This document shows positions 8,135 through 11,258 of a DNA stretch of 26,702 bases, in pieces. The stretch lies in IMG/VR virus record IMGVR_UViG_2660238061_000004. The stretch is one strand, 5' to 3'. Origin of the DNA: a virus. Its lineage: Duplodnaviria > Heunggongvirae > Uroviricota > Caudoviricetes. The notes under the pieces were generated by a model that made no database searches, was not told where the DNA came from, and saw only the letters and a list, made by a program, of their open reading frames with translations. A program made the position numbers and the translations under genes. The first letter of the stretch is position 1, and each line of letters begins with the position of its first letter.

Positions 8135-8398
8135 TTATTTAAAATGAGATGTGCGTGAAAGTTCAACCTTCCATATATCAGCCTTATCCCGATTGCATTG
8201 CCCCAGCGCCGATAGCAGACTGACATTCAGATCCAGACTGTCCCCGTAGGTCAGCGGCTCGGGAATGGCAGGCTGTGGTGTTTCAGCTGTCAGGTTCGCC
8301 GGCAGGGGCACCACCGGCGCCTGCACGTAAACTGTCCGCGTATTCCCGCAGCCGGTTAGCAGCTGCAGCAGGCACAGGCCGACGAGCGCAATCATCAT
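8135..8398 (-). CDS. Rz1-like outer-membrane spanin lipoprotein
   Basis: Out-of-frame ORF starting inside Rz; lipobox LLTGC after a hydrophobic leader; proline-rich mature part; start taken at the internal MM (track ORF is 8135..8464). Confidence 0.55.
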   Translation of the reverse strand: MMIALVGLCLLQLLTGCGNTRTVYVQAPVVPLPANLTAETPQPAIPEPLTYGDSLDLNVSLLSALGQCNRDKADIWKVELSRTSHFK

Positions 8399-8675
8399 CC
8401 GCAACAGCCACTTTGATATCTGCCTGGGCTCTCTGTGACTCCAGTGCGATCTTGTTCTTTGCATTCTGGTTCGCCTCTGAAATGGCGTTGATGATACTCA
8501 CGGCCCGAATCACGTTCGCGGTGACAGCATTCGCGGTCTCAGCCTGCTGTTCTGCGCTATCGGCCCGCTCCTTTTCGCTACTGGCTTTGTCGCTGTAATA
8601 CCATGCCGACCAGCACGCCCCGCCGAACAGGCAAAGGAGGAATATGGCAATCGCAATGATGTGACGAGCTTTCAT
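8283..8675 (-). CDS. Rz-like inner-membrane spanin
   Basis: 130 aa with an N-terminal transmembrane segment and a coiled-coil/charged periplasmic part; start overlaps the endolysin stop. Confidence 0.65.
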   Translation of the reverse strand: MKARHIIAIAIFLLCLFGGACWSAWYYSDKASSEKERADSAEQQAETANAVTANVIRAVSIINAISEANQNAKNKIALESQRAQADIKVAVADDDCARRPVPAAAANRLREYADSLRAGAGGAPAGEPDS

Positions 8676-9208
8676 TTATCGAGCCCCCAGCATGCCAACG
8701 CGCTTTCTTGGTCGCGGCGTTCCACCTGACCGAAGCATCCGTTCTTCTGCCCCTTGGTTAGCCGGCAATCCCGGCCGCCATCTTTTATCCACCAGCGGAT
8801 CGCTTCGCATGCCCCTTTACGGTCACCGGCATTGATGCGCTTATAGAACGTCGAGGGGAAGCACTTACCGGGCCCGATGTTATACGGGCAGAAAGAAGCT
8901 ATTCCGGCCTTTTGCGGTTCGGTCAGCGGCACCCTGATATTGCGTTCAACCCAGGCCAGCGCTTTATTTCGCTCAACGGCATTCACCTGGTCACATTTGG
9001 CCTGCGTCAGCTTCATGCCCTGGCGAACTGGTTTACCATCTACCAGCGTGGCGCCGCGGCAAATAGTCCAGACGCCGCCACCGTCCTGATAAGCAATCAG
9101 GCTGTTGCCTTCCTTCTCATTCAGGAACTGATCGAGAATAACGGGCGCTGACGCACCGGCGAGGATAAGACCTAATACCGCAGCGCTAAGCTTTGATCTG
9201 TCAGCCAC
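8672..9208 (-). CDS. SAR endolysin (phage 21 R-like lysozyme)
   Basis: Lysozyme E...D...T catalytic region (EGNSLIAYQDGGGVWT) after a weakly hydrophobic signal-anchor-release segment (LSAAVLGLILAGASAPVIL); GTG start at 9206..9208 overlapping the holin stop (TAGTG) with GGGGGG upstream. Confidence 0.85.
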   Translation of the reverse strand: MADRSKLSAAVLGLILAGASAPVILDQFLNEKEGNSLIAYQDGGGVWTICRGATLVDGKPVRQGMKLTQAKCDQVNAVERNKALAWVERNIRVPLTEPQKAGIASFCPYNIGPGKCFPSTFYKRINAGDRKGACEAIRWWIKDGGRDCRLTKGQKNGCFGQVERRDQESALACWGLDK

Positions 9209-9423
9209 TATTCCCCCCTGGCGGCTTTGCGCCGGTCCTCTTTGATTTTGAAATACAGGTTTGTCAGATACGTCAGCAGCCCGAACACCAGGCTGCCAAG
9301 CACACCAATGGCTGCCCACTGCGATGGTGACACCTGGTCAAGCAACTGCAGGCTCCAGTAACCAGCGTTAGTCGCTGATGCACCATAGGCGATGCCAGTG
9401 GTTAGTTTTTCCATGCGTAACAT
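9208..9423 (-). CDS. class II holin, S21-type pinholin with dual-start motif
   Basis: 71 aa [23 protein letters not shown]...; two TMDs, charged C-terminus, Met1 and Met4 separated by a basic residue as in phage 21 S. Confidence 0.85.
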
Positions 9424-9521
9424 GCTCTCACCTCCGATTATTTCGGGGTGCTATGTGTAATGGGGATCAGGCTCTCGGGCTGCATTAACAACAAGGCTTG
9501 TTGAGGAGGTTTCCCGGAGCC

Positions 9522-9550
9522 TGAAAAAGAAAAGGCCCGCGTATGCGAGC
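9522..9550 (-). terminator. candidate terminator in the late leader upstream of the lysis genes (tR-prime-like)
   Basis: Imperfect GC-rich stem ggcccgcgtatgcgagcc with a T-rich tract on the minus strand, about 100 bp upstream of the holin start. Confidence 0.3.
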
Positions 9551-9806
9551 CTCTATAAATTCTTTGCCACTTCCCGGAGTGGCCACGCTCATGCCCTTGA
9601 GCTGCTGTCGCATCATCGCCGCTTATCACCGGTGCGCGTCTGGCTTTCGCGCTGCTTTACCGGAGCTATTTTTAATCTATGAACCCTGACCCGTCACTAC
9701 ACAGGCTCGCTCAATGGCGACTCGGGGCAGCATCATGACTGCTGCATTGCCTTTCGGCTACGGTGTGTCCGTTCTACTCTACATTTTCATACCCTCCAGA
9801 AACGGC

Positions 9807-9837
9807 AAAGCCCCGCGGGGTTAACCGCAGGGCTTTA
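9807..9837 (-). other. near-perfect 12-bp inverted repeat between the Q-position gene and the holin
   Basis: aaagccccgcgg-ggttaa-ccgcagggcttt; weak T-run on the minus strand; could be a terminator or a protein-binding site. Confidence 0.3.
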
Positions 9838-9931
9838 AACGAAGGCAGTAACCCATCGTTGGAGAGAAATTAACACAGATTCGGGAAAAGTAAATAGCTC
9901 ACGATAAAATCGACAGCGATTAATTGGTGCT

Positions 9932-10762
9932 TTATCGAGTTATTGCTCGCAGTTGCGATTCGGCCCACGCTTCTTCCATGTCGAATTTGGTGATCAGCCG
10001 GTCGTAAAACGGCTTCACTGACTTTTTCCAGGTGTCCAGAGTAATGGCGTCGGTAATAAGGCAAACAGCCGCATATGCCTCAGTCGAGGGGATCCGCTCA
10101 TACCCGCGCCCGCCGCAGCGCTTGCAGTCGGCCATCACCGGCGCGCCCTGCTTTTCTGTCAGCGTCTTGCTGACAGCTTTTCCGCGCCCCTGGCAGTCAT
10201 TACATGCGCAGCTGACGACCTTCTTCCCTTTGCAGGCCGAGCACAGCACCCGGGCCACCTCTTTCACCTCACGCCGATTCTGATGCTGCGAAGGGATAAC
10301 CTTCAGCCCCCATTTTTTTGATTTTTGAATGATGTCTTTTGCGCAGCCAGAGATGCTGGTTTTCATACTAAAAACGTCAGCCTCAATGAACCCCTGCCCT
10401 GCGCAACATTCGCACCTCTTGACGCTGGCGGCGCTGCGGGAATAGTCCTCAAAAGCGAAGGTAGCAAGCTGGCGCATCACCAGCGGTTTAACCCCAGCGT
10501 CCAGTTTGCGCAGGGCAGCCACGCTATCGCATTTTGTCAGCGCATACTGGGCCAGCAGCTCGATCGCTCTCTCCCGATCGTTGTTGCTGATGCCCATCTT
10601 TCCGAGAAAGGCACTGTAGCCCATGGCGGCGCGTTCCTGGGTCATGCCCATGGCTGCCATGATGTCCGTTCCGGTCAGCGAGTCGGAGGCCGTAGCGCGC
10701 GGAGAGTCGCTAATCAGCGTCGATTTGGCGAAGTGGTATTTCACGGTGTTTTCGAGGTTCAT
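9932..10762 (-). CDS. late-gene antiterminator Q candidate with CxxCxGxG zinc-finger repeats
   Basis: 276-aa ORF between rusA and the holin, the position Q occupies in DLP12/lambda; four CxxCxGx(G) motifs. Assignment is mainly positional. Confidence 0.55.
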   Translation of the reverse strand: MNLENTVKYHFAKSTLISDSPRATASDSLTGTDIMAAMGMTQERAAMGYSAFLGKMGISNNDRERAIELLAQYALTKCDSVAALRKLDAGVKPLVMRQLATFAFEDYSRSAASVKRCECCAGQGFIEADVFSMKTSISGCAKDIIQKSKKWGLKVIPSQHQNRREVKEVARVLCSACKGKKVVSCACNDCQGRGKAVSKTLTEKQGAPVMADCKRCGGRGYERIPSTEAYAAVCLITDAITLDTWKKSVKPFYDRLITKFDMEEAWAESQLRAITR

Positions 10763-10895
10763 GCAGCAGCTCCTGCCAACTGGTTAATGCGAATAAAATT
10801 GCGAAGAATGCGGTAGTCCACCAGCACCGAACCCGGGCGGCGATAAATGCGGAGGCGTGTCCAGCGCATGCGGATTACCTCAATCAGTTCTGATG

Positions 10896-11258
10896 TCATA
10901 AGTCCCCCAGTTCGGTGATGGTCAGCTCCAGCCTGCCGCCCCTGACGACGGGCATCCGTATAACGCGGTAGTCGTCCACCAGCTGATCGTCCTGCCAGAA
11001 TCCGGCCTTAGTAAGCGCGTCGAACGCGGCCTTCTGCAGGTTGTCCAGGTCACGGCGGCGGCGGGCAGGCATATGGCACTCGATGCGAATCTTCACCGGG
11101 CCGGAGATGCCGATATCCAGCAGCTGGTCTTTGATGATTTGGGCCACGCGGTCGCGGTAAGCCTGCCCTTCCGTGCTGATGTGCGTACGCCCGCGATTGT
11201 GTCGGTAATAGCGGTTATTACTCGGTGGCCACGGCAATGTGATTTTGTACTCGCTCAC
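10896..11258 (-). CDS. rusA: Holliday junction resolvase RusA
   Basis: 120 aa from GTG ([26 protein letters not shown]...), matching DLP12 RusA as I recall it; track ORF is 10896..11387, start moved to the internal GTG that overlaps the upstream stop. Confidence 0.85.

Follow-up and report, generated by a model that had tools for sequence, protein, structure and literature searches.

The DNA analysed here (the window) is a stretch of 26,702 nucleotides from a Caudoviricetes virus, IMG/VR record IMGVR_UViG_2660238061_000004. The gene under study, hereafter the Q gene, lies on the minus strand at 9932-10762, where the open reading frame of 276 codons that had been described from the sequence was confirmed to run from ATG to stop. 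It is flanked by rusA (10896-11258) and by a class II holin gene (9208-9423, with its start at 9423), and the gene order at the locus is rusA, ylcG, Q, holin, lysozyme, Rz1. The Q gene had been taken in the preliminary description for the only gene between rusA and the holin gene, but a 46-aa YlcG-family open reading frame (10759-10899), which overlaps the rusA stop and the Q start and is annotated in RefSeq genomes and in phage mEp237, was also found there.

The product of the Q gene is 100% identical to the Escherichia coli RefSeq protein WP_053271628.1 ('antitermination protein'). Sixteen complete E. coli genomes contain the 1.5-kb region at an identity of 99% or more, and in these PGAP labels the genes as rusA, YlcG family protein, antitermination protein and class II holin. 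The gene at 9932-10762 is thus already annotated as an antitermination protein by RefSeq/PGAP; its function is known and the finding as such is ordinary. The whole window is 99.9% identical to a prophage of E. coli strain ES7, which is Rac-like and lambdoid and is annotated with head genes, terminase, a lysis cassette, a nin region, replication genes, an immunity region, RecE/RecT and an integrase. The features of the locus are as follows.

9932-10762, minus strand: Q gene, an ATG-to-stop open reading frame for 276 aa plus stop
10631-10762, minus strand: residues 1-44, counterpart of the lambda torus (nozzle) segment
10424-10582, minus strand: residues 61-113, first half of the helical Q body
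10211-10423, minus strand: residues 114-184, a 71-aa insertion that forms a gap in the alignment with lambda Q, predicted to be a second zinc ribbon
10100-10210, minus strand: residues 185-221, the canonical Q-lambda arm (zinc ribbon)
9935-10099, minus strand: residues 222-276, second half of the Q body (helix-turn-helix region) and C-terminal helix
9867-9894, minus strand: PR'-like late promoter, aligned base for base with lambda PR'
9855-9860, minus strand: putative sigma-dependent pause element AACGAT
9798-9837, minus strand: first terminator-like hairpin
9521-9554, minus strand: second, canonical intrinsic terminator

Both profile searches and structure searches placed the 276-aa protein in the Q-lambda family. 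The profile search against Q families that had been proposed in the preliminary description gave a Pfam match to PF03589 ('Antitermination protein Q') of 147.8 bits, against a cutoff of 26.7 (E 1e-43), and no confident match to a non-regulatory family. A full-length match to phrog_127 ('anti-termination protein Q-like') was obtained in PHROGs (E 1.8e-100), and the only matches found by phmmer among PDB sequences were lambda Q chains (7ubm_Q, E 1.3e-50). When the predicted structure was compared with the PDB by Foldseek, all eight significant matches were Q-lambda structures, the best being 7ubn_Q (E 2.4e-15, TM 0.74 on the target), while a match to DnaJA2 was not significant (E 0.72). PF03589 corresponds to the Q-lambda family, which together with Q21 (PF06530) and Q82 (PF06323) makes up three unrelated families of Q proteins (Yin et al., PMC9388147), and neither Q21 nor Q82 appeared in the Pfam scan at E ≤ 1.

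Alignment with lambda Q showed that query residues 1-113 correspond to lambda 1-113 and query residues 185-276 to lambda 116-207, with 47% identity in a four-sequence alignment. The statement that the protein is unlike lambda Q in primary features is therefore contradicted by the colinearity of its N-terminal 113 and C-terminal 92 residues, as well as by the two CxxCxGxG motifs of lambda Q itself, in which the lambda zinc ligands lie (CRDCHGTG and CGRCKGVG). The accompanying statement that it is larger than lambda Q (276 versus 207 aa) holds, and the difference is due to the 71-residue insertion, which carries a second pair of Cys knuckles.

The domains of the protein could be assigned from this alignment and from an AlphaFold2 model built from a 65-sequence alignment (pLDDT 83), which predicted a lambda-like helical body and a canonical arm, in keeping with the Q-lambda fold of a four-helix bundle with a helix-turn-helix and an arm. 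Residues 1-44 are near-identical to the corresponding segment of lambda Q (SDSPRATASDSLTGTDIMAAMGM in the window, SDSPRATASDSLSGTDVMAAMGM in lambda), which forms a torus in the RNA-exit channel upon NusA binding (PMC9388147). Residues 61-113, predicted to include helices at 60-80 and 92-108, are colinear with lambda Q 61-113 and end in the conserved YSRSAAS segment; residues 222-276, with predicted helices at 226-236 and 242-275, align with lambda Q 153-207. In lambda these two parts (61-113 and 153-207) make up the Q body, whose helix-turn-helix reads positions 1-4 of the Q-binding element; the arm (114-152), a zinc ribbon, recognises positions 11-13 and is in contact with sigma region 4 (PMC9388147). 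The arm of the window protein (185-221) aligns residue by residue with lambda Q chains, so that knuckle 3 (C187/C190) and knuckle 4 (C213/C216) correspond to lambda C118/C121/C144/C147, and in the model strands 195-198 and 209-212 are arranged around a helix at 199-205.

The four CxxCxGx(G/K) motifs that had drawn attention to this gene are CECCAGQG at residue 117, CSACKGKK at 174, CNDCQGRG at 187 and CKRCGGRG at 213, three of them strict and one of the form CxxCxGxK. They proved genuine when 20,000 composition-preserving shuffles of the 276-aa protein were examined, since these contained on average 0.004 motifs per sequence and none contained two or more. All eight motif cysteines, like the glycines of the motifs, are the same in every one of 65 diverse, non-redundant long-form relatives, which is not true of the other five cysteines; C213 and C216 also show no variation among 35 distant representatives.

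The insertion (114-184), which carries motifs 1 and 2, falls between lambda positions 113 and 116, at the junction of body and arm. AlphaFold2 predicted knuckle 1 (C117, C120), a beta-hairpin (125-137/161-173) with a helical tip (139-160) and knuckle 2 (C174, C177), and a model of the arm alone agreed on this fold (pLDDT 82). A second zinc is most likely bound by motifs 1 and 2, at the foot of a long beta-hairpin, which is basic (10 Lys/Arg versus 5 Asp/Glu in residues 125-173, counted from the translation). The predicted secondary structure, together with the crystal structure of lambda Q, suggests two zinc ribbons in tandem, formed by knuckle pairs 1+2 and 3+4, rather than the nesting seen in DnaJ; the number of zincs bound, the way the knuckles pair and the part that the insertion plays are put forward as a model. 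In lambda Q, residues 110-112, 117 and 122-126 contact the zinc-binding domain of beta' (PMC9388147), and the insertion enlarges the arm beside these residues. No family was matched when the insertion by itself was used in a Pfam scan. An origin of the insertion as a duplicate of the canonical arm was considered but not supported: a local alignment of residues 110-184 with 183-226 scored 32, a score reached by 9% of shuffles.

Sequence alignment with lambda PR' identified a candidate late promoter downstream of the Q gene. Its -35 element is TTTACT (9894-9889; TTGACT in lambda), followed by a 16-nt spacer, TTTCCCGAATCTGTGT (9888-9873), and an extended -10 element of TGT plus TAATTT (9875-9867), in which TAATTT (9872-9867) takes the place of lambda TAAATT; a 6-nt discriminator follows. 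The -10-like sequence AACGAT occupies positions +1 to +6 of the presumed late transcript, is followed by GGGTTA and is identical to its lambda counterpart, the longer sequence CAACGATGGGTTA that contains it being identical in the window, mEp237 and lambda. By analogy with lambda, the transcript would start at the first base of this element and the polymerase would pause at +16/+17. A scan for sigma70 consensus promoters did not report this promoter, because its hexamers match the consensus at only four of six and three to four of six positions.

Conservation of the cassette was examined in 80 related IMG/VR viral loci. The promoter-plus-pause pattern was found in 68 of them and AACGATGGG in 67, and TTTTCCCGAATCTGTG (9889-9874) was exact in 50. 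Identity to the window was 0.81 for the cassette and 0.76 for the Q gene and fell to 0.31 in the next 147 nt, which indicates that the Q gene and the cassette move together as one module and that a mosaic boundary follows directly on the first terminator. The PR'-like promoter is conserved in five phages with a long-form Q; in one phage, Midgardsormr38, promoter and spacer are as in the window and the sequence has diverged downstream of the -10 region. The spacer, a candidate Q-binding element to which Q would be expected to bind, is common to phages whose Q proteins are at least 55% identical but is not found in SfV or lambda, the distribution expected of a specificity element.

The two hairpins named in the preliminary description are both present on the minus strand. 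The first has a 13-bp GC-rich stem (9837-9806, at about +24 to +55) and, with its flanks, a predicted folding energy of -31.5 kcal/mol (z -4.2). Its tail, UUUGCCGUUUCU, contains an interrupted U-tract, which makes the efficiency of this terminator in the window uncertain; the T-run is cleaner in the consensus of the relatives. Phage mEp237 retains the hairpin with G-U changes, an equivalent hairpin and T-run occurs in Kpn_R1, mEp460 and SfV, and the SfV record annotates its equivalent as a terminator. The second hairpin, a canonical intrinsic terminator about 100 nt upstream of the holin start, consists of a 10-bp stem (9554-9531) followed by the U-run UUUUCUUUUU (-23 kcal/mol, z -3.1). The layout with a promoter-proximal terminator is shared by mEp237, Kpn_R1, mEp460 and SfV. 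An Rfam scan of the whole window matched no family, and hence no catalogued RNA was found in the spacer between Q and the holin gene.

Taken with the gene order, these results strongly suggest, with a probability of about 90%, that the gene encodes a late-gene antiterminator of the Q-lambda family, belonging to a Rac-like lambdoid E. coli prophage and acting by the lambda mechanism. The idea that a regulator occupies the Q slot was therefore borne out as far as a late-gene antiterminator is concerned, but not the suggestion of a distinct antiterminator class or of a different regulator, since the protein is a member of PF03589. Homology, the predicted fold, the conserved zinc ligands and the cis elements are what the analysis shows for this locus, while antitermination activity is attributed to the protein by homology with lambda Q.

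The following sequence of events is proposed on the basis of that homology (lambda mechanism: PMC9388147). RNA polymerase with sigma70 would start at the PR'-like promoter (9894-9867) and pause about 16 nt downstream, because sigma region 2 would rebind the -10-like AACGAT at +1 to +6. Q would bind the Q-binding element in the promoter spacer via the helix-turn-helix of its body and its zinc-ribbon arm and would also contact the polymerase. With NusA, residues 1-44 of Q would fold into a ring that narrows the RNA-exit channel, so that terminator hairpins would be unable to form. The modified polymerase would then read through the hairpins at 9837-9798 and 9554-9521 into the genes for the holin, lysozyme, Rz/Rz1 and head proteins. 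The insertion adjoins the lambda beta' contact residues 110-112 and 117, and the geometry of loading could differ from that in lambda.

The four-knuckle form is a common variant among Q-lambda proteins. Searches of phage records returned 250 records with relatives. Among them are the 276-aa 'late gene regulator Q' of mEp237 (82% identical), proteins of about 250-276 aa from SfV, SPN3UB, Stx2c-converting phages and phages of Klebsiella and Erwinia, and the 207-aa form found in lambda, P22 and HK022. Four knuckles were present in all 220 full-length homologues collected. Among representatives at 50% identity, all long forms (230-280 aa) retain four Cys pairs, with knuckle 3 frequently of the form CxC and knuckle 1 occasionally CxxxxC; the short forms have just two knuckles. 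The searched literature contained neither a description of a two-zinc or long-form Q nor an experiment on any four-knuckle Q, a functional study of mEp237 Q or SfV Q included, and it gave no account of how a second zinc ribbon affects recognition of the Q-binding element or the loading of Q onto RNA polymerase.

It was also observed that the four-knuckle form is annotated as Q in the plaque-forming phages mEp237 (whose Q is 82% identical, as above) and SfV, which lends indirect support to its being functional.

The alternative that survives best concerns the insertion and would refine rather than contradict the assignment to the Q-lambda family. The second zinc ribbon and basic hairpin may change the loading of Q, either through an extra DNA contact or through a new contact with RNA polymerase, sigma region 4 or NusA, in which case four-knuckle Q proteins would be a mechanistic subclass with a different architecture of the Q-binding element. 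Candidate sites for a DNA contact are the conserved sequence upstream of or within the -35 region and the near-palindromic TTCCCGAA. The position of the insertion among beta' contact residues and the charge of its hairpin suggest that it could alter contacts with DNA or polymerase. Such a change is also consistent with the finding that, in 75 unique relatives, non-coding sequence is conserved as far as some 25 nt upstream of the -35 element, although this could be an A/T-rich UP element; with the sharing of the spacer TTTTCCCGAATCTGTG by phages whose Q proteins are only 55-70% identical and its absence from SfV and lambda; and with the terminator at about +25 to +60 in long-form cassettes, which is unlike the lambda sequence aligned there. 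Across the family, on the other hand, the loop between knuckles 1 and 2 can be as short as about 10 or as long as 57 residues and shows little internal conservation, which argues against a precise, conserved contact by the tip of the hairpin. On balance a changed mode of loading is a reasonable possibility, though one to which we give less than even odds.

The broader proposal, that the four-knuckle ('long-arm') Q-lambda proteins form a structurally uncharacterised subclass with a different loading geometry, is more tentative still. The altered geometry could take the form of an extended or shifted Q-binding element or of an additional contact with RNA polymerase, sigma region 4 or NusA, and it would accompany the promoter-proximal terminator. 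If this is true, the structures of lambda Q give an incomplete account of a part of the family that may be its more diverse half.

A second alternative, that the four motifs constitute a DnaJ-type domain with nested zincs (1+4 and 2+3) and a chaperone-like or redox function, and that a different regulator occupies the Q slot, is very improbable. The motifs themselves are present, the spacing between motifs 2 and 3 is constant at 13 residues, and PF00684 (DnaJ_CXXCXGXG) gives a sub-threshold match (24.1 bits, E 4.3e-5), so that the DnaJ zinc-finger character attributed to the protein stands as a resemblance of motifs. It does not extend to membership of the domain family, for which the cutoff is 32.7 bits; lambda Q, which binds one zinc, scores 23.1 and SfV Q 30.9, and since lambda Q gives a sub-threshold match of the same kind, the DnaJ-like motif is a trait of the Q-lambda family. 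No J domain or other DnaJ region was found in the window protein, whose TIGR02349 score of 13.6 bits lies below the cutoff of 377.2. Each ligand of the single zinc in lambda Q crystal structures has its residue-for-residue counterpart in motifs 3 and 4, motifs 1 and 2 lie at opposite ends of one hairpin in the AlphaFold2 model, and the remainder of the protein is colinear with lambda Q. CxxCxGxG repeats in a gene at the Q position are thus a hallmark of Q-lambda and no sign of a new regulator.

Least probable of all is that Q was disabled by a foreign segment inserted in its arm and that the prophage is defective, for although the same Q-lysis-terminase block lies within a clearly degraded prophage remnant in several E. 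coli genomes (e.g. strain VE-T2) and the U-tract of the first terminator is degenerate in the window, the open reading frame is intact with the insertion in frame, the cysteines and glycines of the insertion are invariant across phages of Escherichia, Citrobacter, Enterobacter, Klebsiella, Salmonella and Erwinia, the same form, under the annotation Q, occurs in the isolated phages mEp237, SfV and Midgardsormr38, and the counterpart prophage in ES7 is annotated with a complete set of genes for the head, lysis, replication and integration.

For a Q-lambda antiterminator of this kind the impact on annotation is small, standard pipelines calling the gene correctly and the cassette being a textbook PR' arrangement. 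A second zinc ribbon is predicted for many members of the family, among them those of SfV, mEp237 and the matched records of Stx2c-converting phages, and is absent from the solved lambda Q structures.

Several known systems can be compared with the window protein. Q21 and Q82 have the same role and genome position as Q-lambda, and Q21 and Q-lambda are not structural homologues (PMC9388147); a sequence match of either family with the window protein was not detected. The cysteine-rich domain of DnaJ (PF00684) has a nested two-zinc centre, unlike the tandem ribbons predicted for the window Q, which has no J domain. Other CxxCxGxG zinc proteins related to the DnaJ cysteine-rich domain are anti-TRAP and BSD2.

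The closest structurally characterised relative is lambda Q (207 aa; PDB 4MO1 and 7UBJ-7UBN; Pfam PF03589), which the window protein resembles in the N-terminal torus-forming segment, the four zinc ligands, the predicted body-plus-arm fold, the position of the gene and the PR' layout. The first terminator lies about 25-60 nt from the start in the window, whereas lambda tR' lies near +194, and the sequence of the spacer in the region of the Q-binding element also differs from that of lambda. Among lambda residues implicated in antitermination, V6, C53 and H56 are replaced by T, L and M in the window protein, while L271 and T275 match lambda L202 and T206 (residue roles in lambda from PMC9388147). 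In SfV Q (250 aa, about 40-42% identical) the two extra knuckles are also present but are joined by a shorter loop. The SfV locus is arranged in the same way, although its spacer differs in sequence; a terminator is annotated there some 110 nt beyond Q. Phage mEp237 shares with the window the four-knuckle architecture, the rusA-ylcG-Q order, and an identical promoter spacer and pause element.

Comparison of the window with 80 related viral loci identified a sharp mosaic boundary at about position 9797 on the minus strand, at which the median identity fell from 0.81 over the PR' cassette to 0.31 over the next 147 nt. This drop indicates that the Q gene and the PR' cassette travel as a single module, independently of the lysis genes. 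In Escherichia coli strain VE-T2 (NZ_AP027960.1, 2733171-2759872), an identical block of Q, lysis and terminase genes was found inside a heavily degraded prophage remnant, which is located between tonB/yciI and kch and also carries RecT and an anti-CBASS Acb1-family pseudogene, both truncated.

The following reading frames of the window were also noted:

10759-10899, minus strand: YlcG-family ORF of 46 aa between rusA and Q
8283-8675, minus strand: Rz-like DUF2570 ORF of 130 aa
8135-8464: embedded Rz1-like LysC, annotated intact

The YlcG-family ORF, the start of which overlaps the rusA stop and the stop of which overlaps the Q start, had no Pfam match, but RefSeq carries an annotation for it, as does phage mEp237 (mEp237_054). 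The Pfam match of the DUF2570 ORF was below threshold, and in the near-identical prophage of strain ES7 this ORF is labeled an incomplete pseudogene by PGAP.

The U-tract of the first terminator after PR' (9798-9837, minus strand) is interrupted in the window (GGGGCTTTGCCGTTTCT), whereas the consensus of 75 related loci is GGGGCTTTTTTCTTT, which suggests that the window's copy of this terminator may be leaky. If so, the canonical terminator at 9554-9521 would be left as the main block. A separate small hairpin, immediately before the terminator hairpin, was predicted for the initial 23 nt of the inferred late transcript (9838-9860, minus strand), a stretch that includes the pause element.

Q-related sequences were also found in other arrangements. 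The mEp460_ev081 record contains two genes annotated as 'Phage antitermination protein Q' (1-817 and 1201-2022), which flank rusA: the product of the upstream gene has about 349 aa, and the downstream gene is the four-knuckle Q. Some representative sequences are much longer proteins containing partial Q, either the N-terminal part alone or the arm and C-terminal part alone; these proteins, P0274 (479 aa), P0308 (401 aa), P0322 (412 aa), and P0349 and P0356 (about 320 aa each), may be fusions or gene-calling artefacts.

Within the conserved promoter spacer (9873-9888, minus strand), a near-palindrome, TTCCCGAA, was identified, and about 25 nt more are conserved upstream of the -35 element (GATTTTATCGTGAGCTA). 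These features could reflect an extended Q-binding element or, alternatively, an UP element. In phage mEp460, the equivalent position of the spacer carries a perfect palindrome, TTCCGGAA, in place of the near-palindrome of the window.
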